Source of the DNA: a virus
Taxonomy: Duplodnaviria > Heunggongvirae > Uroviricota > Caudoviricetes
DNA length: 64,000 nt
IMG/VR virus record: IMGVR_UViG_3300036856_000037
Strand: one strand, 5' to 3'
Of this stretch, positions 999 through 38,612 are shown piece after piece (the stretch's first letter is position 1; each line of letters opens with the position of its first letter). The notes below the pieces were generated by a model. The model had not been told where the DNA came from, made no database searches, and was given only the letters and a program-made list of their open reading frames with translations. Position numbers and translations under genes: made by a program.

Positions 999-1058
999 AG
1001 TGATGTGCCAGGCCGGTGGCGTATAATTTGCGCCATGGCGGCAACCGGCAGCCAGTGT
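999..1058 (+). promoter_or_regulatory. conserved promoter/operator/leader element copy 1 (GTGATGTGCCAGGCCGGTGGCGTATAAT + GGCGGCAACCGGCAGCC)
   Basis: -35-like GTGATG, 16-nt spacer with GCCAG-N5-TGGC palindrome, -10 TATAAT at 1022-1027, downstream imperfect inverted repeat. Confidence 0.5.
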
Positions 1059-1076
1059 GAAGGAGAGCTGGGGATC

Positions 1077-1298
1077 GTGGGAAAGCACACGTTCTGCTGG
1101 AAAGAGCACCGTAATTGGACTGCGATGGGGATCTACTACTACTTCACCATTTATGAGTCACCTGACGGGTTCAAGGTCTACCGCAACGCCAACGGCTGGG
1201 AGAAGATGGGGCCGCCTGAGTACGTCGGTGTCCGCCCCACACTGAGCAAGGCTAAGGCGCTAGTCGATGACAACGATTGTCCTAGTGTGGCGACATGA
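1077..1298 (+). CDS. hypothetical protein
   Basis: GTG start after GAAGGAGAG RBS-like motif, downstream of promoter copy 1; ORF track 1005..1298. Confidence 0.4.
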   Translation: MGKHTFCWKEHRNWTAMGIYYYFTIYESPDGFKVYRNANGWEKMGPPEYVGVRPTLSKAKALVDDNDCPSVAT

Positions 1299-1735
1299 TC
1301 GTCGGCGTGACGGGATCACGAACCGGCCCGACCCACGACCAGCAGGTCTGGGCGCTCAAGCAGTTTTGCCCCGGTGGTCTGGCGGCTGACGTCGAACAGC
1401 TAGAACATGGAGCATGTGAGGGGGTCGACTGGTTCTTTCACATGGTCGCCATGACGCTCCCTGGCATCAAGATTGTGGTGCGACCCGCCACCGGGACGGC
1501 ATCGAAGTGGACGCACCAGGGTTGCTTGGTGGAACGACCCGGCGTGATGGTGATGCCGGCCAAACCGCCCCTGGACCGTACCCATGACATTGTCGACGAC
1601 TCCGGTGTCGTGTTCGCCTTTCCCGAGCAGCACTATGAGGTACTGCGCAGTGGCACCTGGGCGGGTATCCGCTACGCGCGCAAGTGTCGCAAACGGCTCT
1701 ACATCTGTTTTCCCAATGGAGACATCGGTGGCTAA
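1295..1735 (+). CDS. DUF2493/SLOG-like Rossmann protein (GVTGSR ... HGACEGVD motif)
   Basis: 146-aa ORF; N-terminal GxTGSR motif typical of DUF2493 (LOG/DprA-like SLOG superfamily); ATGA overlap with upstream gene. Confidence 0.45.
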   Translation: MIVGVTGSRTGPTHDQQVWALKQFCPGGLAADVEQLEHGACEGVDWFFHMVAMTLPGIKIVVRPATGTASKWTHQGCLVERPGVMVMPAKPPLDRTHDIVDDSGVVFAFPEQHYEVLRSGTWAGIRYARKCRKRLYICFPNGDIGG

Positions 1736-2360
1736 GAAGGAGGAGGCACCTGTCGAGGTCCGTATTGAGCTTCCCCTCCCTACCGACATCGCGCAGACGC
1801 TGATCAAGATCATTGGCCTGACCTACCCCGGCACCATGATTGCGGACGGTCGTGCTGAATGGCAGACCGACCGGCGACTGGTCTTGCAGATTCCGCACAA
1901 GGAGCGCCACAAGAGCGTTAAGGCGCGCAAGAAGTATGAAGAGATCAAAGCGTATGCCGATGGTTGGGTAGGGCAACTGGCCGATTTAGGTCCCCATGGA
2001 GTCTCGATGGAGCCCCATGAAATCCTGGTCAAGCATTGGTGCTTCCTTGCCCAACAGTCGTTCAGCACCTCTCCCATAGAGACCAACTACTTGGAGACCG
2101 AGGTCTACGACAAGGGCGAGCGGCAGTGGTACGTGTTCTACGTCGCCAAAGGCAAGACCCGCACCCCGCACGCACTGCGTCAGGATGCCGACAAACGGGT
2201 GGCGGAACTGGAAGCCCAGTTGGCCGAGGCCGGAGTGAAGAAGTGTCGGTACTGCCAACGAGTAGCGACTGCCGGGTTCGTGGAGATGGACGGCGGCAAG
2301 TGGCGCTGTAAGTCAGGTGATGCCTGCCAGCGCAGGCGTAGAGAGAAGGAGAAGCAATGA
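1716..2360 (+). CDS. hypothetical protein with C-terminal Cys4 zinc ribbon (CRYCQ...CKSGDAC)
   Basis: ORF 1584..2360, start chosen at M45. Confidence 0.45.
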   Translation: METSVAKKEEAPVEVRIELPLPTDIAQTLIKIIGLTYPGTMIADGRAEWQTDRRLVLQIPHKERHKSVKARKKYEEIKAYADGWVGQLADLGPHGVSMEPHEILVKHWCFLAQQSFSTSPIETNYLETEVYDKGERQWYVFYVAKGKTRTPHALRQDADKRVAELEAQLAEAGVKKCRYCQRVATAGFVEMDGGKWRCKSGDACQRRRREKEKQ

Positions 2361-2511
2361 AAGAGGGAGACAAGGTGACCATCACGCATGGCGGTGGTGG
2401 CACGACCAACGGCACTGTGCAGTCCATCGACGACCCTGAGGGATATGTCGCCGTCGTGGATGAGAACGGCGAGGAGTGGAACGTGTCGAAAGAGCGGGTT
2501 GAACCGCGATG
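2356..2511 (+). CDS. small hypothetical protein (51 aa)
   Basis: ATGA start/stop overlap at both ends typical of translational coupling; below ORF-track size cutoff. Confidence 0.3.
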
Positions 2512-2724
2512 AGCCCCTTAATAGTCCTGCTGATGATCGCCTTCATGATCGCCGTCATAGTGATAGGCCTGATGGCCTACCTGGACTACCGCATCAAGGT
2601 CAAGAAGATGGAAGGCCACCCGCGCGCCAAGCAGATGGAGCGGCAGTACGCCGACGTCCTTAAGGAGCTGGACGCCATCAAGCGTGAGTTCAGTGACATG
2701 AAGGACTGGGTGGACGGCAAGTGA
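2509..2724 (+). CDS. small membrane protein
   Basis: N-terminal hydrophobic helix LIVLLMIAFMIAVIVIGLMAYL. Confidence 0.5.
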   Translation: MSPLIVLLMIAFMIAVIVIGLMAYLDYRIKVKKMEGHPRAKQMERQYADVLKELDAIKREFSDMKDWVDGK

Positions 2725-3023
2725 AGGACCAGACGGTTATCAAAATCGTCGGGCTGGCGAATGGCGAGCCAAGCGTTTTTGACGACCAGTACATTGTGGA
2801 GTTTGACCCAGGCCGCGACGGCACCGAGCCCGGGACGGGACGGTTTATGAGGTGTCACCTGGTCACCACCCCGGACATTAGAGAAGCCACCGTATTCGAC
2901 GCTATGGACGCCATCAAGTTGTGGCGGTCCGTTGACCCGCGGGAGCCGACCAGGCCCGATGGTAAGCCCAACCGGCCACTGACGGCCTGGTCCGTCTTGA
3001 TGAAGAGCCCGGGTAAATCGTGA
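2721..3023 (+). CDS. hypothetical protein
   Basis: 100-aa ORF, start/stop overlap with neighbours. Confidence 0.45.
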   Translation: MKDQTVIKIVGLANGEPSVFDDQYIVEFDPGRDGTEPGTGRFMRCHLVTTPDIREATVFDAMDAIKLWRSVDPREPTRPDGKPNRPLTAWSVLMKSPGKS

Positions 3024-3397: not shown

Positions 3398-3410
3398 GGA
3401 AAGGAAAGTC

Positions 3411-4842: not shown

Positions 4843-4905
4843 CTGACGATGTAGCAGGCCGCTGGCATATAATAGGACTAGCTGGCAAGGGGCCAGCTGT
4901 TCGGG
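4843..4905 (+). promoter_or_regulatory. promoter/operator/leader element copy 2 (GCAGGCCGCTGGCATATAAT + AGCTGGCAAGGGGCCAGCT palindrome)
   Basis: -10 TATAAT 4867-4872; perfect downstream palindrome. Confidence 0.45.
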
Positions 4906-7022: not shown

Positions 7023-7808
7023 CTAGGGCCTGCATGGCAATGGTCGGACATGGCCATTCCAGGCGTCCAACATATCCACGCAGAACTGTACTGAGCGGTG
7101 CGCCGGCCGCTTCGGGGTGATCTCGTCGATGTAATGCCGTATGGCTTCTCTGCCATCAAAACCGACGTCAATCCCCCAGACGGTGAATGCCGCCCACTTT
7201 CGTCCACACGGCGGACACTTTCCGCACGGACGGTCTCCGACAGGCTCATAGCAGGAGAAGGTCCGCTCTGCCATCTCCTGACCGTCTACTCCTCTGCGCA
7301 GACATTCCCCCACCAGGCTCGCCTTGGTCATGTGGTAGATGGGGAGCGTCAGGCGCACATGGCGACCCTCGGGCAACCACCGCTGGGGCGCGAACATGTA
7401 GTCGCAGAGAAGGTTGAAGCGCATGGTGAAGCGCCGGTCTTTGTCGTTGCCGGTGGAGCTGTCGACCGATCCCATCTGGATCACGTCGCCGTAGTTGGCC
7501 GCAACGAGAGCCAGGATGGCGTTGCGCCCGGGAATGACTTTGCTGTCGGGGAGCTCATACGCGCCTAGCTGGCGTAAGTCGGCCACCTGTAGCCGATTTT
7601 CCCAGCCTGGTGGCGTCTGTAAGCGACGAAACTCCGCGTCCCCGTACCGACCCGCAATTTTGCAGTACAACAGCACGTCAGAGCCACACAGGACGGCCAT
7701 GCCGTAGCTGTCGACACCGCCGCTGTAGAGCGCAACGGAAGTCATGAGGCCCCCGACGACGAGACACCATATGCCCTCAGCCGTAGTTTTGTCGCCGGGG
7801 TACCGCAC
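7023..7808 (-). CDS. queC: 7-cyano-7-deazaguanine (preQ0) synthase QueC
   Basis: PP-loop SGGVDS, VIPGRNAILALVAANYG block, C-terminal CGKCPPCGRK zinc motif. Confidence 0.8.
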   Translation of the reverse strand: MRYPGDKTTAEGIWCLVVGGLMTSVALYSGGVDSYGMAVLCGSDVLLYCKIAGRYGDAEFRRLQTPPGWENRLQVADLRQLGAYELPDSKVIPGRNAILALVAANYGDVIQMGSVDSSTGNDKDRRFTMRFNLLCDYMFAPQRWLPEGRHVRLTLPIYHMTKASLVGECLRRGVDGQEMAERTFSCYEPVGDRPCGKCPPCGRKWAAFTVWGIDVGFDGREAIRHYIDEITPKRPAHRSVQFCVDMLDAWNGHVRPLPCRP

Positions 7809-8584: not shown

Positions 8585-8956
8585 TTAGGAACTCTTTTCC
8601 AGTTGCGCCTTGACTTCAGGCAGCAGTTCCGGCGGATTGGAGCCGGGAACGTAGAACTCCTTGAGAAGGTATTTGAGGTAGTTCTCCCGTTGCTCCTCGA
8701 GCATGGGGAGGTCATACGGGGCAAGCTCTGCCTGCGCCGCCTTCAGGTCCGCGATGGGGACCTTGCGAAACTCATCGAACATTGCCTTGCGCAATGCCCG
8801 CTTGGCCTGGTTCGAAAGTTTGCTAGGCGGGGCCTCGTCTACTGCTTTGAGGTCACTCGCTGGCTTTGCTGGCTTAGGCTCCTTGCGGAGTTCAGCCTGC
8901 TCACGGTGGGCTGCATTCCTACCTCCCGACGCGCTCGGTGTGCTACGTGCAGTCAT
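8585..8956 (-). CDS. hypothetical protein
   Basis: start at M111 of ORF 8585..9286. Confidence 0.4.
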   Translation of the reverse strand: MTARSTPSASGGRNAAHREQAELRKEPKPAKPASDLKAVDEAPPSKLSNQAKRALRKAMFDEFRKVPIADLKAAQAELAPYDLPMLEEQRENYLKYLLKEFYVPGSNPPELLPEVKAQLEKSS

Positions 8957-9065
8957 GTTCCTACCTTTCTCGCTACGGCGGCTCTTTGCCACCACACCGC
9001 CATTATGCCAGTCACATGTGAATAAGGCCAGGTGCGGTGCATGGACCCTTTTGCCGGGGGTTACC

Positions 9066-9118
9066 GAGGTGCCAGCGGCCTGGCGTATAATAACCGTAGG
9101 CGGCAAGTGGTCGCCCGG
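9066..9118 (+). promoter_or_regulatory. promoter/operator/leader element copy 3 (TGCCAGCGGCCTGGCGTATAAT + GGCGGCAAGTGGTCGCC)
   Basis: -10 TATAAT 9086-9091. Confidence 0.45.
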
Positions 9119-18635: not shown

Positions 18636-20384
18636 TCAGATACGCCCTGCGGCGAAATCTGACATCAGTTGCGGGACATTGCTGTCGAAGCCACTGATGT
18701 CCAAACTCGACGGGTCCTTGGGGTCGGCAATGCTGAAGTTGGTCGCCGTCATCGCGATGACACCGTACTTGACGTCATGGCCCACGAACTGCCGGTACTG
18801 CTCAAGGGCCTGCCACGGGTGAATCTGTCCGAACCAGGTCTCGTTGTCCGTGAGAGTCCAGATGGCGTCGAAGTCCAGCTTGTTGTGCATCGCCCACAGC
18901 ATGGGAAGCGCACAGTCGGTAGCGCCGAACGACAACTGCGCCATGTACTGGCACACGTCGTCCAGCCGACGCCGGGGGTCGATGTCCAGGCGTGTCGCCA
19001 CACCCGGGCGACCCCAGCCGCCGAAGCTACCCTGCCGTCCGTCCGAGAAGCCGATGATGTCGGCGTCCTGCTCAACGTTCAGCGTGACCAGCGACAGGGC
19101 TCCGACTGCCTCACGGCAGGTGATCGGCAGGCCGCTGGCCGGGCTCCCCATCGAACCCGACACGTCGCAGGCCAGCAGGATGCGCTTACGCGCCGCCTCC
19201 ACCGCGCCGTACGCGGCGTAGAACGCCTGGTCCAGCGCGTTGCTGACCTTGCGATCCGGCGTCCAGGTGCTATCACCGCGCGCACTGCGCCCACTCGCGT
19301 AGGTCCGCTGTGCCACCAACACGTTGATCGGGTGCACACGGCCACGCTTGAGCACCGCTGGGTCGGTGAGCTGCTTGACGATGGCCTTGCTGTAGCTGCT
19401 GTCCTGCGTCAGGCCCAGGTTGGTCAACCGGGGGAGCTGACGCAGGAGAGCAGTGATCGGGATGCCCTGGTCGAACAACGCCTCCCACACCGCTGGGATG
19501 CCCAGCGCCTTGTCCGGAAGCATCTCCCACGACATGCCGTTACCGTGCTGGATGATCTCCGTCCAGCGCCGTGCCGCCGACTTCTCACTGGCCGTGGTGC
19601 TCTGCGCCTCCAGGAAGTCGTTGACCAACGCGGGCAAGACCGTCTCATCGTGGTCCAACCACGTGCGGTAGTGCTCACGGTGTGTCCGGTTCAGGTGCTC
19701 AACCTGGGCCTCCTCGCGCTTGCCACCGGTGTCGACGGCGTAGCGGTAGAGGTGGTCACGCACCGAGTCGTCTGGCTGACCAATGTCGGGGTTGGCGTGG
19801 CTCAGCGCCAGCAGGTCACGGTGCATCCACCCTTCTCGCTGGCGGTACTTGAGGATCTGGTAGGCCAGCTTGTCGACGGGCTTCTGGTTGTACCAGTTGG
19901 CGACGGCGCGCTTGAACGCTCGGCCCCAGCCACGAAACTTGCGGATGTCGTTCTCCGCGCCGGGGTCGATGTAGCCGACGAACTGGTACAGGTGCGTGGC
20001 CGTACGGCACACCTGGTTCACCTTGGTCAGCGCGTAGGCGCGACCCTCATCGCCACCGAGGCTGACGGCCACGGCGAGCGCGAAGATGCACGGATTCTGT
20101 CGCGGCGCGCGGCCGGCGAGGGAGATTTCCACGACGGTGTCGACCAGCGTGATCGGGTCCTTCATCGCCATGTCCATCACGATCTGCGCGTTCTCCAGCG
20201 TGATGTCCTTGGACGACGTGTAATACGTGCCGCCCTCTGACCCCAATGTCAGCCAGCGACGAAGCCGCGCAAGTGGGTCGATCTCGAACACGAAGCCACC
20301 GGCGTTGTTCTTCGCCGTCGCAGCACCCGCGGGGCGGGACTGTGGCGTGGTGCGGATCGAAATACCCCTGAGCGTGTCAACCAT
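18636..20384 (-). CDS. rsr: Ro60/Rsr orthologue (TROVE domain + C-terminal vWA/MIDAS)
   Basis: ~580 aa; N-terminal TROVE-like region (GGFVFEIDPLARLRRWLTLGSEGGTYY); C-terminal vWA with LLACDVSGSMGSP MIDAS motif; start taken at second ATG with GGGAG spacing 6. Confidence 0.7.
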   Translation of the reverse strand: MVDTLRGISIRTTPQSRPAGAATAKNNAGGFVFEIDPLARLRRWLTLGSEGGTYYTSSKDITLENAQIVMDMAMKDPITLVDTVVEISLAGRAPRQNPCIFALAVAVSLGGDEGRAYALTKVNQVCRTATHLYQFVGYIDPGAENDIRKFRGWGRAFKRAVANWYNQKPVDKLAYQILKYRQREGWMHRDLLALSHANPDIGQPDDSVRDHLYRYAVDTGGKREEAQVEHLNRTHREHYRTWLDHDETVLPALVNDFLEAQSTTASEKSAARRWTEIIQHGNGMSWEMLPDKALGIPAVWEALFDQGIPITALLRQLPRLTNLGLTQDSSYSKAIVKQLTDPAVLKRGRVHPINVLVAQRTYASGRSARGDSTWTPDRKVSNALDQAFYAAYGAVEAARKRILLACDVSGSMGSPASGLPITCREAVGALSLVTLNVEQDADIIGFSDGRQGSFGGWGRPGVATRLDIDPRRRLDDVCQYMAQLSFGATDCALPMLWAMHNKLDFDAIWTLTDNETWFGQIHPWQALEQYRQFVGHDVKYGVIAMTATNFSIADPKDPSSLDISGFDSNVPQLMSDFAAGRI

Positions 20385-20491
20385 TTCCATCTCCCTTCTT
20401 CTCTTCAAAGCACACGCAGCACCGACGCCGATTCGTTAATTGGGGTGCTTAACACCCCGTCGACTTCCTTGGCGTCTATGCTGCGTGTGAA

Positions 20492-20564
20492 GGCGCGAAC
20501 GAAACAAGTGAGCACCGAACTAATTTCGGCAAATGAGATAATCGATGCTCATCCGGCTCGCGCC
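20492..20564 (-). ncRNA. Y-RNA-like module 6 (short; terminal stem GGCGCGA/TCGCGCC, lacks tRNA-like core)
   Basis: conserved GAGCCGGA-N5-AUCGAUUAUC hairpin and UUCGUUCG 3' motif; unit-specific complementary ends. Confidence 0.35.
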
Positions 20565-20575
20565 AAAAATCTTGT

Positions 20576-20722
20576 GAGAGTGGCGAACGAAAAAGTGTAG
20601 ACCCGTGTTTTAGTGCTCTGCCAGGCTGAGCTACACCCCACCATTGGTGGGGTGACGGGATTCGAACCCGCGACCACTCGATCCCAATTCGATAACGAAT
20701 CCGCATCCGGCTCGCCACTCTC
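20576..20722 (-). ncRNA. Y-RNA-like module 5 with permuted tRNA-like core (T-arm, acceptor-like hairpin, D-arm)
   Basis: 11-bp terminal stem GAGAGUGGCGA/UCGCCACUCUC; GGUCGCGGGUUCGAAUCCCGU-CACCCCA-ccaaugg-UGGGGUG-UA-GCUCAGCCUGGCAGAGC. Confidence 0.5.
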
Positions 20723-20742
20723 AAAAGTTAGTGACCTGAACG

Positions 20743-20854
20743 AAATTCGGCATCCAGCTGAACTGGATTTCTCCAGCCGCAGGGACTTCTACCTCCCCGC
20801 TTAGCGTTTAGGGCTCGCCAGCCGCAGATAACTGAATACACTCCGGCTCAGGTC
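20743..20854 (-). ncRNA. Y-RNA-like module 4 (terminal stem UGACCUGA/UCAGGUCA; no T-loop)
   Basis: conserved GAGCCGGA...UUCAGUUAUC hairpin; internal hairpins. Confidence 0.35.
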
Positions 20855-20863
20855 AACGTACAA

Positions 20864-21002
20864 GGTCCGAACGAAAATGTGACGACCGGCGTTTTTAGGG
20901 TGGGATTTGAACCCACGACCTTCACCCGCGAGGGCGATGCTCTACCAACCTGAGCTACCCCGCTAATTTGTGCGGATAACCGAACGTGCTCCGGCTCGGA
21001 CC
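20864..21002 (-). ncRNA. Y-RNA-like module 3 with near-complete tRNA-like core
   Basis: terminal stem GGUCCGA/UCGGACC; GGGGUAGCUCAGGUUGGUAGAGC ... GGUCGUGGGUUCAAAUCCCAC, but no canonical acceptor pairing and a 6-nt anticodon-like loop. Confidence 0.5.
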
Positions 21003-21010
21003 GAAGTTGT

Positions 21011-21145
21011 GGTGGCGAACGAAGTAGTTGTCGACTCGCGTTTAGCGACTTAGGCCTCTCGTCCACACCCCGAAGGGTGACGGGATTTGAACCCGCGTCT
21101 CTCTTTTTGACAGAAAGGTAACGAATAGACTTCCGGCTCGCCACC
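21011..21145 (-). ncRNA. Y-RNA-like module 2 (T-arm + acceptor-like hairpin closed by UUCG)
   Basis: terminal stem GGUGGCGA/UCGCCACC; GCGGGUUCAAAUCCCGUCACCCuucgGGGUG. Confidence 0.45.
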
Positions 21146-21158
21146 GAAGTTTGTAGGA

Positions 21159-21257
21159 GACGCGAACGAAGCAGTTGCCGCCGGATTCACACCCCTACGC
21201 GGGGTGAGAAGGATTCGAACCTTTTAGCCGATAACCGAACAGCTTCCGGCTCGCGTC
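21159..21257 (-). ncRNA. Y-RNA-like module 1 (T-arm + acceptor-like hairpin)
   Basis: 10-bp terminal stem GGAGACGCGA/UCGCGUCUCC; AAGGUUCGAAUCCUUCUCACCCCgcguaGGGGUG. Confidence 0.45.
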
Positions 21258-21274
21258 TCCCTATGAAATTTTCT

Positions 21275-21302
21275 AAGAGCGGTTGCGCCTGAACGCAATG
21301 CT
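21275..21302. promoter_or_regulatory. palindromic element TTGCGCCTGAACGCAATGC (second copy at 47545)
   Basis: TTGCG-N6-CGCAA inverted repeat in divergent intergenic region. Confidence 0.35.
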
Positions 21303-22732: not shown

Positions 22733-22800
22733 GGGGTTAATACTGAAGTGCCAGGTAGCTGGCATATAATATAGCCACGCTGGCAACCGGCCAGCTACCT
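22733..22800 (+). promoter_or_regulatory. promoter/operator/leader element copy 4 (GTGCCAGGTAGCTGGCATATAAT + GCTGGCAACCGGCCAGC)
   Basis: -10 TATAAT 22765-22770; perfect downstream palindrome; RBS AAGGAAAGGAAAG. Confidence 0.5.
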
Positions 22801-22816: not shown

Positions 22817-23821
22817 ATGCCCGGTACGTTTGGCTTTGCGATATTTATTTTCATCGTCGCGGCCATCATCGTTCTCGTGGGAGTCGGAGGGATATTCGCC
22901 GGCAGTAAAGAGACGACCATCGGCGGCATCGGCATCGGTGTGGCGGTGGCATTACTCATCGGCCTGCCGCTGACACTGGTCGCCTCCTATGACCGCGTCG
23001 ACACGCGCAACGTCGGCATCCTGACAGACTTCGGCAGGCCGGATGGGGTCCAGGGCGCTGGGGTGTGGTGGCACGCGCCGTGGAAGCAGGTGCACGAACT
23101 GCCGGAGTCCATCCAGTTGCAGGCGTTCGAGTCCAACAGCTTCGACGACGCAAGCAAGGGTCAGGGTTCCAACAACAACCCGGCGGCCATCGGCGTTCGG
23201 CTGGCGAACAATTCGATGGCGTATGTCAACGCCAACCTGAACTGGCGCATCAAGGAGGGCGCGGCGCAGAAGCTATTCCAGGACTACGGCGGCGGCAACG
23301 TCTTCGGGACCATCAAGGAGCAGTTGGTCGACCGTCAGGAGCAGGTGGCGCTGTCCAAGGTGTTCGCCAAGTTCAACCCGCAGATTGTGGCGACGGCGAA
23401 TGCACCGGCGCCGGGTCAACCGGCACCACCGCCGCCTGGGCCTATCACGGCACCCGCGCAGGGCGCTAGCCTGCCCGACCTGGCCAGGGAAGTGAAGCAG
23501 GACCTGCAGGGTGCGGTGGGCGCGGAGATCGAAATCCTGGATGTCCGTATCCAGGGGATCTTCTACGACCAGCAGACCCAACAACGCATCGACATGTTCA
23601 ATCAGAAGGTGCAAGAAACCATGAATGCGGCGCAGGACGTCAAGACGGCTGAGCAACAGCGGGACGCGGCTATCCAGCGTGCCCAGCAGCCCAAGCCAGA
23701 CCTGACCATCGCGGTGTTCAACTGCATCCAGGAGGCGGTGGCGCAACACCAGCCGCAGAACGCCGCCGGGTGCTGGGGTCAGATTGGCGGGCAGCCGCTC
23801 ATCCAACTGCCCAAACCGTAG
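22817..23821 (+). CDS. SPFH/band-7 (HflK/C- or stomatin-like) membrane protein
   Basis: N-terminal TM helix, RVDTRNVGILTDFGRP band-7 start, long coiled-coil and Pro-rich C-terminus. Confidence 0.6.
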   Translation: MPGTFGFAIFIFIVAAIIVLVGVGGIFAGSKETTIGGIGIGVAVALLIGLPLTLVASYDRVDTRNVGILTDFGRPDGVQGAGVWWHAPWKQVHELPESIQLQAFESNSFDDASKGQGSNNNPAAIGVRLANNSMAYVNANLNWRIKEGAAQKLFQDYGGGNVFGTIKEQLVDRQEQVALSKVFAKFNPQIVATANAPAPGQPAPPPPGPITAPAQGASLPDLAREVKQDLQGAVGAEIEILDVRIQGIFYDQQTQQRIDMFNQKVQETMNAAQDVKTAEQQRDAAIQRAQQPKPDLTIAVFNCIQEAVAQHQPQNAAGCWGQIGGQPLIQLPKP

Positions 23822-23870: not shown

Positions 23871-23906
23871 GCCAGGGCGCGGGTGGTTCACTGCCCGCGC
23901 CCTGGC
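23871..23906 (+). terminator. intrinsic-terminator-like hairpin (13-bp perfect stem GCCAGGGCGCGGG/CCCGCGCCCTGGC)
   Basis: perfect GC-rich inverted repeat, CTCTTTTT 10 nt downstream. Confidence 0.5.
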
Positions 23907-23930
23907 GCTTCTGCGCCTACTCTTTTTCCC

Positions 23931-24302
23931 ATGGAAGAGTGGAAACCCGTCCGTGGATTCGAGGAGTATTACATCGTCTCCAACATGGGCATCATCCGCT
24001 CTCTGGACCGCTTTGTCCGAGGTAAGGACGCCAGCGCGCGCAAGATCAAGGGACAGGAGCTGACGCCCCGGGTGCGCGCTGATGGCAGCTTCGCCGTCAA
24101 CCTGTGGCGCGACAACGTCTACCACCAGATTCCGGTGGCGCGCATTGTGCTCGAGGCTTTTGACCGGCCCCGGCCCCTGGGACACGACGCCAGGCCGACC
24201 AACCGCAACCCCGCCGATAACCGGTTGAGCAACTTGCGCTGGCGACTTGATGGACGACTTCGTAGAGCAGAGTCCATTAAGCGTCGGACAGGCCAGCTCT
24301 AA
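23931..24302 (+). CDS. HNH homing endonuclease with NUMOD4 motif
   Basis: MEEWKPVRGFEEYYIVSNMGIIRS is a NUMOD4 signature. Confidence 0.6.
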   Translation: MEEWKPVRGFEEYYIVSNMGIIRSLDRFVRGKDASARKIKGQELTPRVRADGSFAVNLWRDNVYHQIPVARIVLEAFDRPRPLGHDARPTNRNPADNRLSNLRWRLDGRLRRAESIKRRTGQL

Positions 24303-24311: not shown

Positions 24312-24372
24312 ACTGATGTGCCAGGCGACTGGCGTATAATGGTCAGCGCGGCGGCAGTACGGCAGCCGCGTG
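24312..24372 (+). promoter_or_regulatory. promoter/operator/leader element copy 5 (CTGATGTGCCAGGCGACTGGCGTATAAT)
   Basis: -10 TATAAT 24335-24340. Confidence 0.5.
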
Positions 24373-28135: not shown

Positions 28136-28614
28136 GATTGCTCCACGCCGTCCAGTGCCGTCAGGATGCGCGCGCGGTAAGCCTCTTCGCTCTCATCCTT
28201 GCGCCGCTCATAGTCGCTGTGGCGATGCTGGACCGGCACCGCGCGCTCAGGCACTTCCTGCGCGTCCCACTTCTTGGCCTGGCCGCCGATCACTTCCTGG
28301 ATCCTGGCCAGGTGCTCTTGCCGGCGCTCATCGCTGACCGGAACCTTGTCCAGCTCCAGTGGCGCTCGGTCAGCCTGGTCGCGTCGTTTGGCGCGGGCGA
28401 CGTTGGAGATGTCCGCGGGCTGCGGCCAGGGCCGCTGGGGCACTGAGTAGTAATCAGCGACGGCGCTCAGCAAATCCTGGCGTTGCAGGGTGGGGTAGCG
28501 CTCAAAGTGCTCATACCAGGCGTCCTCGATGATGAGTGACTGCTTCGGCGAGTGGATGGGGTCGTACCCGACACACTTGGTCAGGGCATCGAGGATGTCA
28601 CTGCGGGTGATCAT
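28132..28614 (-). CDS. hypothetical protein
   Basis: 160-aa ORF, ATGA-coupled. Confidence 0.5.
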   Translation of the reverse strand: MITRSDILDALTKCVGYDPIHSPKQSLIIEDAWYEHFERYPTLQRQDLLSAVADYYSVPQRPWPQPADISNVARAKRRDQADRAPLELDKVPVSDERRQEHLARIQEVIGGQAKKWDAQEVPERAVPVQHRHSDYERRKDESEEAYRARILTALDGVEQS

Positions 28615-29531
28615 TCCAGCTCCCCTTGTACCGGCTGTGAACGCATGGCTTCCTCCCTCTCGAGTTGTTGTTTTCTCATCTGCAGGCCCATTGCCTTCTG
28701 GTCGACGCCGTTGAGTTGGCCATTGGCCCGGTGGAACTGCGGGAACTTATTCGGGTTCCCCGCGACGTCCCGACACCGGCGCTGAAAAGTCATATCCCAG
28801 TCCAGCTTCGCGGCATGTTGTCCCGTCTCTGACCCCCAGAACTCTTGGAAGTCCTCAAGCAAAACGCCTAGACGGAGGTTGGGGTATTTCTCGATCATGG
28901 TGGCCCGTACGTGGTCGGAAGGCCGCCAGCCGTCAGGGATGCGCTTGCCGCGCTTGGCGCCCCCCCCAGACCCCCCCTTACCAGTGGAAGTTACTTCCTT
29001 AGGTAAGTCCATTAAGGTAACTACCTCACTACCTGGCCTAGCCTGCCTAGCCTGCCTGTGCTGTCCCGAGTCGCTTCCCCGGGGAATGTCCCCCGGGACA
29101 TCCGCTGTAGCAGGGGTTTCCCTAAAGGCGTCCCCTGGCCTGTCCCCCGGGACACTCCCTGGGGGGATGTCCCGGGGGACAAACCCGTCGTCGGCAGCCC
29201 TTGCCGCGCGCTGGCGCGCCTTCTTCTCCCGCTCGCGCGTTCTGGCGCGCTCTAGGATTTCATGCTCTGCGCGGGTGGTCTGGGTCGACGAGAACTCCGA
29301 AATAAGCCACCGTCGCTCAATCTGGGTCCACAAGCCAGCGGCGACAAGCTCGTCCTCTGTGCACCGGGTAAAGCCGGGAATGAGACCTAGGTCCTCTGGC
29401 TCAATAACGCCGTCCGTGCGATTCTCCACCGACCACATAAGGGAGCTGACGAATGACCGATGCGCTCTATCGGTAAGCCGTTGTACGCGCCGGTCAGTCA
29501 GCCACCGACCTGGGAGCCTCGTGTCACTCAT
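28611..29531 (-). CDS. hypothetical protein with internal peptide/DNA repeats (possible replication-associated)
   Basis: 306 aa; central low-complexity region encoded by iteron-like DNA palindromes. Confidence 0.45.
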   Translation of the reverse strand: MSDTRLPGRWLTDRRVQRLTDRAHRSFVSSLMWSVENRTDGVIEPEDLGLIPGFTRCTEDELVAAGLWTQIERRWLISEFSSTQTTRAEHEILERARTREREKKARQRAARAADDGFVPRDIPPGSVPGDRPGDAFRETPATADVPGDIPRGSDSGQHRQARQARPGSEVVTLMDLPKEVTSTGKGGSGGGAKRGKRIPDGWRPSDHVRATMIEKYPNLRLGVLLEDFQEFWGSETGQHAAKLDWDMTFQRRCRDVAGNPNKFPQFHRANGQLNGVDQKAMGLQMRKQQLEREEAMRSQPVQGELE

Positions 29532-29802
29532 CTAGTGTCCAACAAGCCGCCACGGTTCAACCTTCATGTCGACACCGCCCACACACCATGCAGACTCCTC
29601 TTGGCGAAGTCCCCCCGGATGACCCCCGGCAGTAGGTGGGCAATACATTTGCCAGCCACCTGGCATATACATACCACCTTCGCAGGGGAGAACGTAGTGT
29701 TTTGCCGGTGTCAATTGTGTTTAGTAGCAAGGGTTCAGCAAACTACATTGATGTCATTACTCTTGCTACTTGTTAGTAACTTGGGGACAACTTGTTAGCC
29801 CA

Positions 29803-29858: not shown

Positions 29859-30812
29859 CTATTCCGGCGGGGTCTGCAGGGAGTCCAACACAGCCTGTGC
29901 GTCCTCCTTGGAGATTTTGTGCAGGCTGGTCAGCTTCGCGTCGCGTTGCAGGAATTGGCCAATCTCATCGAGCACCGCCTGGCCGGTGATGTTGCGCGCC
30001 TTGTACAGCTTGCGGATCTGCTCGAGCTGTTCATTGGACGGCGGTGCCCCCTCGGGCTGTACCGGGGCGGGCTCTGGCTCGGGCTGGGGCGCTGGTGCCG
30101 GAGGGGGGGATTCCTCCGCTGACTGCGAGGCAATCTCCCGCAACGCCGACATGCCGCCTCCGCGTGGCGCCTGGCGCACCACCCGCTGGACGGTGACGTT
30201 GTCCAGTTGCAACTCCTCCACGCTGTAGGCCATGCCCAGCAGCACATCCTGGTATTGGATGCGGCAGACCTCAGCAATGCACTTGGCTCGCAACATTTCC
30301 TGCGGGTTGGTCTGGTACCGCGCATTGCTGGTGTAGCCCGCCTGGCTGGCGCGCTCCATCGTCCACTCGCTGGTGGCCCACTTGCCGTCGCGTTCAGCGC
30401 GCCACACGACCCGTTGGTCGGTGGCCTCCACCTCCTCGATCTTGTAGCCCGCCCGCCGTACCTGGGCCGCCATCGTGCGGGCATACACCGCCGGCTTGCC
30501 CGCGACGACGAAGATGTTCTGCGCACTCTGCGCGGCAGTCAGCCCTAACTCCGAGCCATAGAGGATGGCGGCGGCCAAGTCCCAGGTCGCGGAGTCCCCG
30601 CGCGGGTCGGTGCACCCGCGGGGCTTGGCATTGCGCTGGAAGTGCTCAGGCACCATGGAGGTGGCTGACAGCGCCTTGGCAATCTTGAACGCCTTGTCCA
30701 TGGACTCAGCCTCAGCCTCTAGGCGCTGCAGGCTCCCGGTGGTGGGTGTGGTGATCTCACGAACATCAGGTTCGTAGTGGGCCACGTCGTTACCCGGTTG
30801 TTCGATACTCAT
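29859..30812 (-). CDS. RecT/Redbeta-like single-strand annealing protein (putative)
   Basis: position immediately downstream of YqaJ-like exonuclease gene; size and composition consistent; Pro-rich linker. Confidence 0.45.
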   Translation of the reverse strand: MSIEQPGNDVAHYEPDVREITTPTTGSLQRLEAEAESMDKAFKIAKALSATSMVPEHFQRNAKPRGCTDPRGDSATWDLAAAILYGSELGLTAAQSAQNIFVVAGKPAVYARTMAAQVRRAGYKIEEVEATDQRVVWRAERDGKWATSEWTMERASQAGYTSNARYQTNPQEMLRAKCIAEVCRIQYQDVLLGMAYSVEELQLDNVTVQRVVRQAPRGGGMSALREIASQSAEESPPPAPAPQPEPEPAPVQPEGAPPSNEQLEQIRKLYKARNITGQAVLDEIGQFLQRDAKLTSLHKISKEDAQAVLDSLQTPPE

Positions 30813-33665: not shown

Positions 33666-33908
33666 GTGACGCTCCAGGTAGTCGGCGGCGATCTGTTACG
33701 TCAGCTCATCGCGGCGCGTTACGCCAGCAACCTCACCCAGGCAACTGTCGCAGAGAAAATGGGCGTATCAGCGGCGCGGGTGGGACATATTGAATCGGGC
33801 TACCGGACCATGACGATGGGGACGCTCCTGCGCTATGCCGAGGCCGTGGGGGTGGACTTGGTGGCCGTCCAAAAAAGTCCCCCGATGTGCCAGTTGGGTG
33901 GCGTATAA
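33666..33908 (+). CDS. XRE-family HTH regulator (Cro/CI-like)
   Basis: LTQATVAEKMGVSAARVGHIESG. Confidence 0.55.
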   Translation: MTLQVVGGDLLRQLIAARYASNLTQATVAEKMGVSAARVGHIESGYRTMTMGTLLRYAEAVGVDLVAVQKSPPMCQLGGV

Positions 33909-33912
33909 TTGG
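33880..33912 (+). promoter_or_regulatory. promoter/operator element copy 6 (CCGATGTGCCAGTTGGGTGGCGTATAAT)
   Basis: -10 TATAAT 33904-33909, ATG 6 nt downstream. Confidence 0.5.
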
Positions 33913-33915
33913 CGC

Positions 33916-34458
33916 ATGACCGCCAGTACAGACCTCGACAATAAACTCACACGGGTTAACAAGCTGATTCTTACTCCCGGCGCGCACGCCGTGCTCAAGC
34001 GCGAAGGTGTTGACACCCTGGGTCACTTGACCAAATTCACCGATCAACAGCTCCTCCGTATGACCGGCATGACGCCGGAAAACGTCGCGCAAATCAGCAC
34101 TGAGCTGGCGCGGCGCGGGTTGCGGTTAGGCGCGGAAGGCCAGGCCCAGGCGCAGGCCGACTCATATGAGCGCAGCCTGGAACTACAGCACGACGTCAGG
34201 GAAGAGAGCTACCGGGTCTTCACCTACGACGAGTTCACCCTGACCGTCCATGAAGACGGCTCAGCAGTCCTCGAGAGAGCACCCCAGAGGGTCTCGTTGG
34301 GCGCTGACCAAATGGCCGCGCTGGGGGAGATACACCGGCGATTGGACGAGAGTCAGCTCATCAAGCTTCTCCACCACTGGGAACAGGGTGAGGACATCGA
34401 CAAGCTGTATGCCCAGGCGGTGCGGCGGGCACTGGCGGGAGAACTGAAGTGGCAATGA
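33916..34458 (+). CDS. hypothetical protein with RNAP-alpha-CTD-like helix-hairpin-helix N-domain; probably leaderless
   Basis: ATG 6 nt after TATAAT; LTPGAHAVLKREGVDTLGHLTKFTDQQLLRMTGM. Confidence 0.45.
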   Translation: MTASTDLDNKLTRVNKLILTPGAHAVLKREGVDTLGHLTKFTDQQLLRMTGMTPENVAQISTELARRGLRLGAEGQAQAQADSYERSLELQHDVREESYRVFTYDEFTLTVHEDGSAVLERAPQRVSLGADQMAALGEIHRRLDESQLIKLLHHWEQGEDIDKLYAQAVRRALAGELKWQ

Positions 34459-34808: not shown

Positions 34809-34887
34809 TGACCGGCTGGACCACATTCATCACAGTGACACTTGCAGGGCTCATCGCCTATGGCCTGTATGCCGCGATGAACTACCC

Positions 34888-35837: not shown

Positions 35838-35866
35838 TTGATGTGCCAGGCCGGTGGCGTATATTG
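35838..35866 (+). promoter_or_regulatory. promoter/operator element copy 7 (TTGATGTGCCAGGCCGGTGGCGTATATT)
   Basis: spacer identical to copy 1. Confidence 0.5.
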
Positions 35867-35885
35867 GTCACAGGAAGCGGGGGCA

Positions 35886-36278: not shown

Positions 36279-36280
36279 CC

Positions 36281-36511
36281 ATGGACCTCAATGACCTCAT
36301 CGGGTGCTGCGGCACCCTCACGCTCGCCACTCGCGGGCCAGCGGGGTTTGGTGAGATTACGGTGAAAGCACACGGATGCCGGATGGCCTACCTGGCGTGG
36401 TCAGCCGAGCCGATTGCCCGAGGGGAGCAGGTCGTCGTCATTGGCATACGCGGCATAGGCACCGTGATGGTGGAGCCGTGGGACTTTGGGGCAAGGGCCC
36501 CAGAGGGGTAA
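36281..36511 (+). CDS. NfeD-like OB-fold protein (short form)
   Basis: 76 aa, beta-rich GEITVKAHG...GEQVVVIGIRGIGTVMVEP; immediately upstream of flotillin gene. Confidence 0.5.
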   Translation: MDLNDLIGCCGTLTLATRGPAGFGEITVKAHGCRMAYLAWSAEPIARGEQVVVIGIRGIGTVMVEPWDFGARAPEG

Positions 36512-36525
36512 CGAAGGAGAAGTTC

Positions 36526-37857
36526 ATGTTTGGTTATCGCGTACCACGCCCTGATGAGGCGATGCTCATCTCCGGCGCCAAGTCCAAGGCGAAGGAGGAC
36601 TTGTCGGCGGGACCACCCTTCCAGGTGGTCGTCGGACACGGCAAGTGGGTCCTCCCACTCTTCCGCAAGGTGGAGTTTCTGACCCTGCAGATGCATGAGG
36701 CGGAAGTCATCGAGAACTGCGTCAGCCGCCAGGGGATACCGCTCAAGGTCAATGCGGTCATCGCGTTCAAGGTGGCCAACGACACCGAGAGCATCTGTGC
36801 TGCCGCGCAACGCTTCCTGGTCCAGGAGGACCAGATGCAGACGCTGACGGGTCGCATCTTTGCCGGCCACCTGCGAAGCATCGTGGGCTCCATGACGGTG
36901 GAGGAGATTGTCCAGGATCGCCAGAAGCTGGCGACGGAGGTGGTGGACGGCAGCAAGGAGGAGATGGCGCGCATCGGCCTGACGGTGGATGCGTTGCAGA
37001 TCCAATCCATCGAGGACCCCACGGGGTACATCCAAGCGATGGCCAAGCCCAACATCGCCGCCGTCCAACAGCGCGCCAATGTTGCCCAGGCACAAGCCGA
37101 CCAGGCCAGTGCTGAGGCCCAGCAGCAGTCGTTGCGCAAGCAGGCGGAGTTCGCGCGCGAAACCGCCGTCCAGCAATCCCAGTATCAGGCGGAGATGGAC
37201 AAGGCCCAGCAGGTGGCAGCCCAGGCGGGTCCGTTGGCCGCCGCGGAGTCTGAGCAGGCGGTGTTGGAGAAGCAACGCCAGACCGCAGAACGTCGCGCCG
37301 AGCTGACCAAGGCCAACCTGTTGTCCAGTGTGGTGGAGCCACAGAAGGCGGAAGCCGAGAAGGTACAGATCATCGCCAGTGCCGAGGCTGAGAGGGCCAA
37401 GATCGAGGCGCGCGCCGCCGCCGACATCGCGACCATCAATGCCAACGCGGCCAAGATGGCGGCCCAGGCCAACGCGGATGCCACCCGCGCGGCCAAGCAG
37501 GCTGAGGCAGACGGCATCAGGGCGGTCAAGACGGCTGAAGCCGAGGGCCTGAAAGCGGCGGCAGAGGCGGCAGCCGCTGAGGGCAAGGTGTCGCTGGACC
37601 AATTGCTCATCCAGACACTGCCCGAGGCCATTCGCGCGGCCTCTCAGGGCTTGGCAGGGTCGAAGATCACCATGCTGGGTGGTGGCGATGAATACACCAA
37701 GCTGGTTGCCGGGTTGGTCCAGCAAGGCGCAGGCATCTTCCAATCCCTGCGCGGTGCGCTCAATGACTCCACCAACGGCAGGCAGACTGATGACCTGAGT
37801 GAGAAAATGTGGCAACTACGCACGGAAGCAGACCCTATTGGCGATTCGAGACGGTGA
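36526..37857 (+). CDS. flotillin-like SPFH-domain protein
   Basis: MFGYRVPRPDEAMLISG start, SPFH core, very long Ala/Gln/Glu-rich coiled-coil (EA repeats). Confidence 0.7.
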   Translation: MFGYRVPRPDEAMLISGAKSKAKEDLSAGPPFQVVVGHGKWVLPLFRKVEFLTLQMHEAEVIENCVSRQGIPLKVNAVIAFKVANDTESICAAAQRFLVQEDQMQTLTGRIFAGHLRSIVGSMTVEEIVQDRQKLATEVVDGSKEEMARIGLTVDALQIQSIEDPTGYIQAMAKPNIAAVQQRANVAQAQADQASAEAQQQSLRKQAEFARETAVQQSQYQAEMDKAQQVAAQAGPLAAAESEQAVLEKQRQTAERRAELTKANLLSSVVEPQKAEAEKVQIIASAEAERAKIEARAAADIATINANAAKMAAQANADATRAAKQAEADGIRAVKTAEAEGLKAAAEAAAAEGKVSLDQLLIQTLPEAIRAASQGLAGSKITMLGGGDEYTKLVAGLVQQGAGIFQSLRGALNDSTNGRQTDDLSEKMWQLRTEADPIGDSRR

Positions 37858-38090
37858 GCTAAGCGCCGAGGAAACCTCCCGAGGGTGGCGATTCACCTAC
37901 GTCACCTACGGGGGGGCAACCCACCTGGGTCCTCGTCTGTATAAGACCAAGGCGGGGGCACAGTCCGCCGGGCACAAGTGGCTGGAGCAGGAAAAGAAGA
38001 AGAGGTGAGCCAACGTCGGGCGTCAAGCCCGCCGCGCCGTTGTTTGTTCATGCACTGGGGTGTAGGGCGGCGTGGAAGTATGGACGGACC

Positions 38091-38552
38091 ATGACAGCGA
38101 GGTCAAGTCGCCGAGTCCGTACCAGCGCCCGACGTCTTACCCTGTGCCCGGTGTGTCTGGACCACATTGAGGTGGCCCACGAAGTGGTCAAAGAGCACCT
38201 CGACAGCGCGGGTAACACCTGCCCGATGAGCGGCCAGTCGTTGCCGCTGTGGGATGAGTCCGCCACCCGCCAGGCGGTCAAGGGCCGCTCAGGGGGGATT
38301 TGCGAATACTGCGCCCGGCGGCGCGCCACCGATATGCACCACCGGATGTCACGCGGCGTCGGCGGCTGGTGGAGTCCAGGGAACATTCTGCACCTGTGTC
38401 AGGAGTGTCACCGCTGGGCAACTGATCGGCCCAAGGATGCCTACGCCCGAGGCGTGTCGGTTCAGCGGGGTCTCGACCCCTGCGATATTGCCGTGCGGCG
38501 GTACGACGGACTCATTTTGACGATTGACGATAACGTCGCGCCACCATGCTGA
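38091..38552 (+). CDS. HNH endonuclease
   Basis: CEYCARRRATDMHHRMSRG ... NILHLCQECHRW. Confidence 0.55.
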   Translation: MTARSSRRVRTSARRLTLCPVCLDHIEVAHEVVKEHLDSAGNTCPMSGQSLPLWDESATRQAVKGRSGGICEYCARRRATDMHHRMSRGVGGWWSPGNILHLCQECHRWATDRPKDAYARGVSVQRGLDPCDIAVRRYDGLILTIDDNVAPPC

Positions 38553-38559
38553 ATAACTG

Positions 38560-38612
38560 TTGATGTGCCAGTAGACTGGCTATAATTACGCTACGGCGGC
38601 AAATGGCCGCTT
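38560..38612 (+). promoter_or_regulatory. promoter/operator/leader element copy 8 (TTGATGTGCCAGTAGACTGGCTATAAT + GGCGGCAAATGGCCGC)
   Basis: -10 TATAAT 38581-38586; RBS AAGAAGGAGAAGG. Confidence 0.5.

Follow-up and report, generated by a model that had tools for sequence, protein, structure and literature searches.

Families of promoters that recur within one phage genome are already known from other phages. In the Streptomyces phage phiC31, conserved inverted repeats are found at similar early promoters and one repressor acts on many transcription units. The Cluster A mycobacteriophages L5 and Bxb1 carry dozens of stoperators, asymmetric sites of 13-14 bp that are mostly located off promoters and at which one silencing protein blocks elongation. 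At the level of the transcript, 5'-terminal stem-loops stabilise mRNAs, as in the leaders of E. coli ompA and T7 gene 10. The closest known analogue of the element analysed here is the promoter early stem-loop (PeSL) cassette of T4-like myoviruses, comprising a strong sigma-70 promoter, a stem-loop mostly between the -35 and -10 elements or overlapping the -10, and a downstream Shine-Dalgarno (SD) sequence with an ATG; many copies stand before ORFans and mediate modular shuffling (Arbiol et al. 2010, PMC2839356; Comeau et al. 2014, PMC4122927). In Cluster O phages, SigA promoters occur together with palindromes (PMC4351075). Here, we analysed a stretch of 64,000 nucleotides of the IMG/VR virus record IMGVR_UViG_3300036856_000037 (the whole stretch is termed the window), which carries a reiterated cassette of ~75 bp. 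As judged from its sequence, this cassette is composed of a predicted promoter with a symmetric, protein-binding-like site, usually a hairpin, and then a ribosome-binding site. It is a new variant and a member of none of the families compared.

Putative promoter cassettes in the window

The window has a G+C content of 62%, and its gene map combines our own crude gene call with Logan gene calls. A preliminary description had listed eight copies of a promoter-like element in front of rightward genes. A search with the pattern TGATGTGCCAG-N5-TGGCGTATAAT, allowing up to three mismatches, yielded six matches in the window, all on the plus strand, as compared to none in 100 dinucleotide-preserving shuffles, and a position weight matrix (PWM) built from these matches regained all eight copies, the start coordinates given at first being off by 0-11 nt. 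Enrichment over shuffled sequence, which had been proposed as a check of the element, is thereby borne out. Moreover, the cassette family emerged as the largest direct-repeat family of the window in an unbiased repeat search, and STGGCRTATAAT, which represents the right half of the site together with the -10 hexamer, occurs nine times versus 0.32 expected. For TGCCAG-N4-CTGGCA with up to two mismatches, 16 matches were obtained versus 5.8 expected, nine of them being genuine family sites.

The strong copies share the consensus YGAKGTGCCAG-N4-STGGC(G)TATAAT (Table 1). They are co-oriented on the plus strand, where they head or lie inside islands of small genes, and a start codon follows each of them on this strand within 6-50 nt. 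In a multiple alignment, the likeness begins at about the -35 position and no upstream flank aligns, which points to a compact promoter-like element rather than to the edge of a longer repeat. No further copies were found in the 5.6 kb to the left or the 10 kb to the right of the window. We conclude that the family of putatively co-regulated promoters is real and heads at least eight groups of small genes.

The statement that each copy precedes a plus-strand gene holds for these eight strong copies. It fails for a supposedly degenerate copy at 29641, which proved to be a perfect palindrome (29650-29665) with neither a good -10 nor a plus-strand gene 3' of it, situated between the minus-strand genes 28611-29531 and 29859-30812 (RecT). 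Another copy regarded as degenerate, at about 48640, contains a perfect CTGGCATATAAT on the minus strand (48635-48656), being the upstream one of two tandem promoter-like sites before the helix-turn-helix (HTH) gene 48231-48482; on the plus strand the copy is only degenerate, yet followed by a hairpin, an SD and an ATG.

For an alignment of 22 copies, seven window copies were combined with 15 from two other contigs, and the window copy c38557 was set aside owing to its 1-nt deletion. The alignment revealed two blocks of information, YGAKGTGCCAG and STGGCGTAWAAT (STGGC(G)TAWAAT), with ~1.3-2 bits per position, and an N4 centre between them with 0.3-0.7 bits per position. The -10 hexamer TATAAT proposed earlier is present in 17 of the aligned copies, the others having TAAAAT (four) or TATATT (one), and the spacer measures 16-17 nt. 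TTGATG, suggested as the -35 element, was found in two of the eight window copies only; over the alignment its first position is C or T, and the -35 is weak for this reason. In all copies the spacer is filled by a dyad with the core GCCA-N6-TGGC, which abuts the -10.

The arms of the dyad are invariant in sequence, without compensatory changes, and its innermost pair is an uncompensated G·G in about half of the copies. Folded as RNA, the dyad yields a weak structure (-6 to -12 kcal/mol) that lacks a U tract. The invariant arms, the free centre, the fixed register to the -10 and the operator-only site at 29650 together look like the binding site of a dimeric protein. The spacer dyad is a predicted operator for such a protein, and the earlier idea of an operator placed in the spacer would fit both the information profile and the solitary palindrome.

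Intrinsic termination as the main function of the spacer dyad was considered and rejected, because of the weak fold, the missing U tract and the divergent genes upstream of two copies (c999 and c9061), where there is no upstream transcript to terminate. Perfect terminator-like hairpins do occur elsewhere in the window, namely a 16-bp stem with a T-rich tail after a Band-7 gene (23883-23918) and a 20-bp stem (18570-18630) upstream of 18365-18568 on the minus strand; the strong terminators of this genome thus look quite unlike the cassette dyad.

A second inverted repeat follows in six window copies, as had been described, at an offset of 5-8 rather than 7-9 nt after the -10. It forms a hairpin of 6-9 bp, and in these leadered copies the start codon is located 40-50 nt after the -10, with an SD between hairpin and start. 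In an alignment of 14 hairpins with loops of 4-5 nt, 90.8% of the cells were paired, a value reached by none of 500 shuffles, and sliding the partner by one to three columns as a control lowered the pairing to 12-56%. Two adjacent pairs covary (CG in seven and GC in seven hairpins; CG in seven, UA in four and UG in three), and G·U is present at one stem pair in nine of the 14. On the opposite strand, G·U and U·G pairs would read as A·C, and they disrupt the symmetry of the DNA, so that the structure under selection is the sense-strand RNA; the earlier idea of a 5' leader hairpin is thus backed by covariation and G·U pairs. The loop reads A(A/G)NNG in all 14 hairpins, and 'GGCA', comprising the end of the 5' arm and the first loop base, as well as the last loop G are invariant. 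Support for the hairpin is positional and comparative, not thermodynamic. The hairpin of the degenerate plus-strand copy (48679-48695) scored 20.9 bits with a covariance model that had not been trained on it. A scan of the whole window with Rfam at gathering thresholds returned no family for the leader hairpin, the sole match being tRNA-like at 20898-20959. When all gaps of at least 35 nt were surveyed, hairpins before an SD proved rare genome-wide, being essentially limited to the cassette family and two to three other sites, and a genome-wide habit was rejected on this basis.

In leaderless mycobacterial mRNAs, the -10 lies at -12 to -7 and +1 falls on the start codon. Four of the seven hairpin-less copies (window 33916, L044, L034a, L047d) have an ATG or GTG exactly 6 nt after the -10. 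In the window copy c33879, this ATG at 33916, with which the JGI gene call also begins the gene, predicts a leaderless mRNA. Read from the leaderless copies, +1 would be the 7th nt after the -10, a purine in most copies, and only 0-2 nt would then separate the hairpins from the predicted 5' terminus. Leadered copies with a 5'-terminal hairpin and leaderless copies without it represent the pattern that a protector of the 5' end predicts. A specific RNA-binding factor would be compatible with the conserved loop. For c999, the Logan gene caller uses an alternative start, ATG 1035.

Copies and relatives beyond the window

Beyond the window, scans of IMG/VR at the right spacing detected the motif on two contigs only, both from the same sample: IMGVR_UViG_3300036856_000023 (contig 23; 42.5 kb) with 13 copies and IMGVR_UViG_3300036856_000021 (contig 21; 35.7 kb) with four. 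These copies are co-oriented within each contig, and most are followed by the same hairpin, an SD and a start codon. The cassette family comprises at least 25 copies in total and probably heads at least 25 gene groups; instead of about eight units under one control, as initially proposed, the regulon probably amounts to ~25 units.

An unrelated second phage was first favoured as the source of contigs 23 and 21, since they show no nucleotide similarity to the window and have one protein in common with it, and was then rejected on four lines of evidence. Both contigs and the window sequence are present in the Logan run SRR11836412, and the tetranucleotide correlation of the two contigs with the window (0.95-0.98) is as high as that between the window halves. 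In addition, the orthologues found in two relatives that are single contigs (100.9 and 113.9 kb) are divided without duplicates between the window contig and contigs 23/21, and the terminase, portal and capsid genes are located on contig 23. Among the best 120 of 1073 matches, no terminase homologue was observed on a contig of 116,665 bp, the length of the JGI contig that holds the single recorded copy of the window protein 33916-34458. The window contig and contigs 23/21 are most likely pieces of one genome. Logan short-read contigs (L054 = SRR11836412_541533; L012) begin and end inside motif copies, and identical 26-31-mers are common to the copies; the cassette thus fragments assemblies of the phage and probably accounts for the division of the genome into several contigs.

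Two peculiarities of copies on these contigs are worth recording. A full-strength copy at L036 10990-11023 (plus strand) stands between two minus-strand genes, adjoining the terminase, and has no canonical hairpin; only a plus-strand open reading frame (ORF) of 48-49 aa follows, and the transcript would be antisense to a glycosyltransferase gene. Moreover, a short, conserved G+C hairpin, CCCCGTCGCCGGGGG followed by TT, is present ~10-15 nt upstream of six to eight copies, mostly on contig 23, including L050 430-455, L044, L047 (several) and window 9040-9060. This hairpin might act as a weak terminator or attenuator ahead of the cassette, which would be reminiscent of PeSLs.

The relative L013/L058, whose proteins are 45-78% identical to those of the window, gave no match in a PWM scan. 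Its promoters (TATAAT/TACAAT) are followed after 8-10 nt by hairpins of the type CYGGC-ARAGC-GCCGG and then by an SD and a start codon, and two of them carry their own, different inverted repeat in the spacer. A second relative, L055, was recovered from another sample; its terminase and the one encoded on contig 23 are 73% identical. Here, we observed an identical hairpin, TGGCGGC-AAACG-GTCGCCA, before an SD and ATG (27.4 bits with a model built without it), a hairpin with a compensatory change before a gene whose orthologue follows the L050 copy, and one bidirectional site containing CTGGCATATAAT. Among the few relatives sampled, the hairpin-SD leader appears to be the older and more widespread element, and the dyad to be specific to the phage. 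A phage-specific dyad with a more widespread hairpin would fit an operator that co-evolves with its repressor. The repeat searches were dominated by a 3.3-kb repetitive G+C-rich gene of L013 (13150-16450, minus strand), which encodes collagen-like repeats of the Gly-X-Y type.

Among cultured phages, megablast with 20 kb returned only matches of 40-55 nt, to Cluster F mycobacteriophages. With the 62-nt consensus, blastn in distant mode retrieved nothing, so that, within the sensitivity of BLAST, none of 50,697 phage records contains the motif. A metagenome scan at the right spacing gave only single, mostly low-G+C, chance-like matches, and neither the motif strings nor a matching promoter repeat of actinophages turned up in searches of the literature.

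Proposed function and rival explanations

With a probability of roughly 0.55, we favour a model in which the cassettes are early-type promoters for the host SigA with a built-in operator for an HTH dimer of the phage and a stabilising or recognition hairpin at the 5' end of the transcript. Host SigA RNA polymerase would use TATAAT along with the weak -35-like YGATG(T) and would start ~7 nt after the hexamer. The dyad GCCA-N6-TGGC would be bound by a dimeric phage HTH protein switching at least eight units in the window, and ~25 genome-wide, on or off together, the likeliest use being the shut-off of early or accessory genes. The predicted leader would comprise 0-2 free nt and then the G+C-rich hairpin of 6-9 bp, the RNA sense of which is backed by covariation; its most likely role is to shield the message from RNases that depend on the 5' end, and a protein may also recognise it. 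In most copies without the hairpin, the predicted +1 would coincide with the first base of ATG or GTG. In addition, recombination between the repeated cassettes probably shuffles the small genes under their control.

As regards the regulator, the XRE protein named in the preliminary description is one of at least three HTH candidates (Table 1), and this part of the proposal is not supported in silico, in contrast to the phage promoter family with built-in operator and leader hairpin, which is so in part. The HTH genes 48231-48482 and 48869-49150 diverge from a region with several family elements, and the two family-like promoters before the former make autoregulation possible. The HTH locus at 48.2-49.2 kb is at least as suggestive as the XRE gene.

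Several points weigh against the operator model. The -35-like YGATG(T) agrees with TTGACA at two to four of six positions in the 22 copies, and a generic sigma-70 scanner accepts only one of the eight window copies (35839). No computational link of any candidate HTH protein to the dyad was found, and the dyad is not clearly conserved in the relatives. Its invariant arms could also stem from recent copying or gene conversion among the cassettes, and if all contigs belong to the same genome, the 17 extra copies are paralogues and do not represent independent conservation. As for the leader, single hairpins are no stabler than shuffled G+C-rich sequence (z -0.2 to -2.4), and the conserved 5' arm and loop (GGCA) suggest sequence recognition over mere protection of the 5' end.

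The dyad could instead be an RNA or DNA stem-loop that attenuates upstream read-through, as in a PeSL-type cassette, with copies kept identical by inter-cassette recombination that shuffles ORFan genes. The architecture does agree with published PeSLs (PMC2839356; PMC4122927), the copies drive small hypothetical genes and share identical 26-27-mers at which short-read assemblies break, and HNH homing-endonuclease genes abut two of them. We nevertheless regard this explanation as unlikely, if a serious contender: in functional RNA hairpins, a change in one stem strand is normally balanced by a change in the other, as seen in the leader hairpin but not in the sequence-invariant arms of the dyad; the hairpin formed by the spacer is weak, has no U tract and retains the uncompensated G·G; two window copies have no co-directional upstream gene; and an AT-rich UP-like region is missing, the 30 nt upstream of the copies showing no conservation and an A+T content of 41% versus 38% for the window. 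Rather improbable is positive control, in which the block from -35 to -13 would be the site of a phage activator made first, either MerR-like in the spacer or akin to sigma appropriation, and the promoters would form a middle or delayed class. The consensus -10, the weak -35 and the strongly conserved block in its place follow the logic of T4 middle promoters. In addition, XRE, the first plus-strand gene of the 33.6-kb block, would be transcribed from another promoter region, which lacks the motif and lies shortly upstream of c33879, and on two contigs a copy is directly followed by the gene for a protein resembling the C-terminal domain of the RNA polymerase alpha subunit (alpha-CTD-like). 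Yet published maps of transcription start sites indicate that a TANNNT -10 without a recognisable -35 suffices at most mycobacterial SigA promoters, and no activator would then be needed; moreover, the spacer of 16-17 nt is not over-long (19-20 nt) as is typical of MerR-type promoters, and no activator candidate was identified.

Three further alternatives concern the second inverted repeat. It is doubtful, albeit conceivable, that the leader hairpin is mainly a recognition site for an RNA-binding protein, such as a lambda N/boxB-type antiterminator, a translational regulator or a processing enzyme. The invariant GGCA and last loop G, the uniform loop, the same hairpin sequence in a relative from another sample, the position immediately 5' of the SD and the resemblance of 6 bp plus pentaloop to boxB in size all speak for it. 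On the other hand, neither a boxA-like partner nor an N-like protein nor terminators further downstream came to light, without a systematic search for boxA or N, and the extreme 5' position together with the absence from leaderless copies is what a 5' protector predicts. More speculatively, and with little probability, spacer dyad and 5' hairpin might constitute a two-part loading site, DNA first and nascent RNA second, for a phage factor that modifies host RNA polymerase, amounting to regulon-wide antitermination or reprogramming of the Q/N kind; the phage alpha-CTD-like proteins, being encoded directly 3' of copies on two contigs, might be involved. It is scarcely probable that the second repeat is an auxiliary operator (O2) at +1 to +20, acting as DNA and bound by the same or another dimer. 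It is near-palindromic, and in some copies its arms (CTGGCA / GCCAG) are similar to the half-sites in the spacer dyad, but in everted order; G·T breaks the DNA symmetry in nine of 14 copies, and two positions change on both arms so as to preserve base pairs, which protein recognition does not require.

Compared with the known systems, the cassette shares with PeSLs the many near-identical copies of a small composite unit that combines a host sigma-70-type promoter (here a predicted one), an inverted repeat between -35 and -10 (the dyad lies in the spacer of all copies) and an SD with a start codon at the 3' end, here 20-50 nt after the -10 or at +6. Both stand before small, mostly unknown, ORFan-like genes in variable regions, and repeats of this kind are natural substrates of homologous recombination. 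In contrast to PeSLs, with which it has no sequence homology, the cassette belongs to a siphovirus-like phage of a putative high-G+C actinobacterial host, is devoid of an AT-rich UP region, has a dyad that is protein-site-like (invariant arms, free centre) and a poor terminator, and possesses an extra, covariation-supported hairpin at the predicted 5' end of the transcript. Like phiC31, the phage has a reiterated, highly conserved intergenic dyad at a family of putative early promoters, although the sequences are different; a dyad over the core promoter with conserved arms and a free centre is what characterises operator regulons of the lambda/phiC31 type. With stoperators it has in common many short phage-specific sites in short intergenic regions and a fixed orientation to transcription, whereas the present site has dyad symmetry and is joined to the -10 at a fixed spacing. 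Cluster O phages are alike in their mycobacteriophage-like host range, in having several strong promoters of the SigA type and first genes that are leaderless, and in a phage-specific dyad repeat that a dimeric protein presumably binds; however, their palindromes are mostly off promoters and their promoters are not one near-identical family, while here dyad and promoter form one unit with a hairpin. As in the ompA and T7 gene 10 leaders, the hairpin is predicted 0-2 nt from the 5' end and precedes the SD. Its structure is conserved as in such stabilising stem-loops, yet the sequence of its loop and 5' arm is conserved beyond what a pure stabiliser would require. A small hairpin with a conserved pentaloop in the leader is also reminiscent of lambda N/nut.

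If the operator model is correct, one operator and one 5' hairpin would define the whole early or accessory regulon (~25 units) of a large uncultivated mycobacteriophage-like virus and would provide a list of co-regulated genes likely to act on the host (WhiB, PE/PPE, SPFH/Band-7, alpha-CTD-like). The cassette would then offer a compact, strong and probably repressible promoter-leader unit for mycobacterial genetics, and its hairpin, conserved in relatives, a simple system in which to test mRNA decay that depends on the 5' end, or RNA recognition, in actinobacteria. As a second, phylogenetically remote PeSL-like example, it would suggest that large phages use reiterated promoter modules as a general means of wiring and shuffling their accessory genes.

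Gene content and further observations

Table 1. Cassette copies, related sites and candidate regulators of the window
Feature	Position	Strand	Remarks
c999 promoter/dyad	1001-1027	+	-10 TATAAT 1022-1027; upstream gene divergent (88-888, minus)
c999 hairpin	1036-1054	+	TGGCGGC-AACCG-GCAGCCA, one G·A mismatch; then SD GAAGGAGAG, GTG 1077
c4843 promoter/dyad	4847-4873	+	left arm degenerate (TAGCAG); -10 4868-4873
c4843 hairpin	4879-4899	+	(T)AGCTGGC-AAGGG-GCCAGCT(G); then ATG 4924
c9061 promoter/dyad	9065-9091	+	-10 9086-9091; divergent from minus-strand gene 8585-8956
c9061 hairpin	9099-9115	+	GGCGGC-AAGTG-GTCGCC, one G·U pair; then GTG 9132
c22740 promoter/dyad	22744-22770	+	perfect palindrome TGCCAG-GTAG-CTGGCA; -10 22765-22770
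c22740 hairpin	22779-22795	+	GCTGGC-AACCG-GCCAGC; then ATG 22817 (Band-7/SPFH protein)
c24310 promoter/dyad	24314-24340	+	-10 24335-24340; directly 3' of NUMOD4/HNH gene 23931-24302
c24310 hairpin	24347-24370	+	CGCGGCGGC-AGTACG-GCAGCCGCG: 9 bp, one G·A mismatch, 6-nt loop; then ATG 24384
c33879 promoter/dyad	33883-33909	+	overlaps 3' end of XRE gene, whose TAA stop lies inside TATAAT 33904-33909; no hairpin
c35835	35839-35865	+	TTGATG-16 nt-TATATT; no hairpin; then ATG 35886
c38557 promoter/dyad	38560-38586	+	TTGATG, dyad, 1-nt deletion, TATAAT 38581-38586; directly 3' of HNH gene 38040-38552
c38557 hairpin	38595-38611	+	GGCGGC-AAATG-GCCGCT; then ATG 38630 (DUF4314 protein)
operator-only site	29650-29665		perfect TGCCAG-CCAC-CTGGCA, no usable -10
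minus-strand member, half dyad	48635-48656	-	CACTAG-TCGA-CTGGCATATAAT
degenerate member	48524-48544	-	GGCCAG-TCTA-CTTGC-TATAAT; then SD, GTG 48482
degenerate plus-strand copy	48638-48663	+	ATATGCCAG-TCGA-CTAGTGGTAAGCT; dyad common to the minus-strand site 48635-48656
family-type hairpin of 48638 copy	48679-48695	+	GCTGGC-AGAAG-GCCGGC; then SD, ATG 48710
minus-strand variant	8997-9013	-	CTGGCATAAT; divergent from c9061
hairpin of this variant	8974-8996	-	9 bp, TGTGGTGGC-AAAGA-GCCGCCGTA; then SD, ATG at 8956
candidate regulator 1, XRE-family HTH, 80 aa	33666-33908	+	stop codon within -10 of c33879
candidate regulator 2, HTH, 83 aa (phrog_686)	48231-48482	-	two family-like promoters 5'
candidate regulator 3, HTH DNA-binding, 93 aa (phrog_2511)	48869-49150	+	other side of the shared dyad at ~48640

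The window belongs to an uncultivated, siphovirus-like actinophage that resembles mycobacteriophages; no close cultured phage was found, and no integrase was seen among its readable genes. It encodes Ro60/TROVE, PE and PPE, WhiB and DUF732 proteins, RecT with a YqaJ-like exonuclease, a tail protein of 2000 aa and minor tail proteins. The strands alternate: structural, lysis, recombination and DNA-modification genes are located on the minus strand and lack the motif, and the plus-strand islands contain mostly small genes without family matches. Genes predicted to be driven by the cassette encode small hypothetical proteins, GNAT, WhiB, PE/PPE, two Band-7 proteins, DUF732 and the alpha-CTD-like protein. 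GTG 9132, downstream of c9061, opens an operon in which genes for MarR-like and WhiB proteins are followed on the plus strand by PE (9929-10228, Pfam 2.8e-17) and PPE (10232-11455, Pfam 2.5e-59). PE/PPE pairs are a hallmark of mycobacterial secreted proteins and unusual in phages, and the pair also points to a Mycobacterium host.

The alpha-CTD-like protein is the sole protein common to the window and contig 23, and in both it is encoded directly 3' of a copy. L040 477-947 matches PF03118 with 66.8 bits, and its paralogue in the window, the apparently leaderless gene 33916-34458, with 20.3 bits, which is below the Pfam cutoff. In an index of 5.8 billion proteins, no alpha-CTD-like homologues were detected beyond the two queries themselves. 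Free-standing HNH homing-endonuclease genes are located at 23931-24302 (NUMOD4), 38040-38552 (HNH) and 46868-47461 (HNH_3+AP2), and two of them end directly upstream of the cassette copies at 24314 and 38560. SPFH/Band-7 proteins are encoded at 22817-23821 and 36562-37857, the latter preceded by a gene for a small NfeD-like protein (36281-36511), and each set lies 3' of a cassette; a 9-bp hairpin, CTTTGGGGC-AAGG-GCCCCAGAG (36484-36505), stands before the SD of the second Band-7 gene.

The Ro60/TROVE-vWA gene (18636-20384, minus strand) is preceded by ~900 nt of non-coding DNA (20400-21300, minus strand), in which ~5-6 Y-RNA-like units are arranged in tandem, with the repeat GAGCCGGA...GTTCGGTTATC and tRNA-like T-arms GGTTCGAATCC. 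Rfam YrlA matches at 20582-20713 (44.7 bits, E 1.7e-8, below gathering), besides the tRNA-like match at 20898-20959 mentioned above, and ARAGORN called no tRNA. From these predictions, gene and array form a putative phage-borne Ro/Y-RNA module with multiple Y RNAs.

A full set for 7-deazaguanine modification of DNA, comprising FolE, QueE, QueD, DpdA-like, ParB-like and QueC, is encoded at 40991-47461 and 7023-7808, both on the minus strand. A PurZ-like homologue of adenylosuccinate synthetase (phrog_1211, E 2e-81) is present on contig 21 (L034 2982-4250, minus strand). If the contigs represent one genome, the DNA chemistry of this phage may involve deazaguanine together with 2-aminoadenine. 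A second repeat, (A/T)TGCGTTCAGGCGCAA followed by GAAAAT(T)TCATA, was observed at 21283-21299 and 47546-47562 on the minus strand (two versus 0.16 expected). These copies head the minus-strand units of the Y-RNA/Ro60 and deazaguanine clusters, and may represent a different class of minus-strand promoter (TTGCGT-17 nt-TAGAAA).

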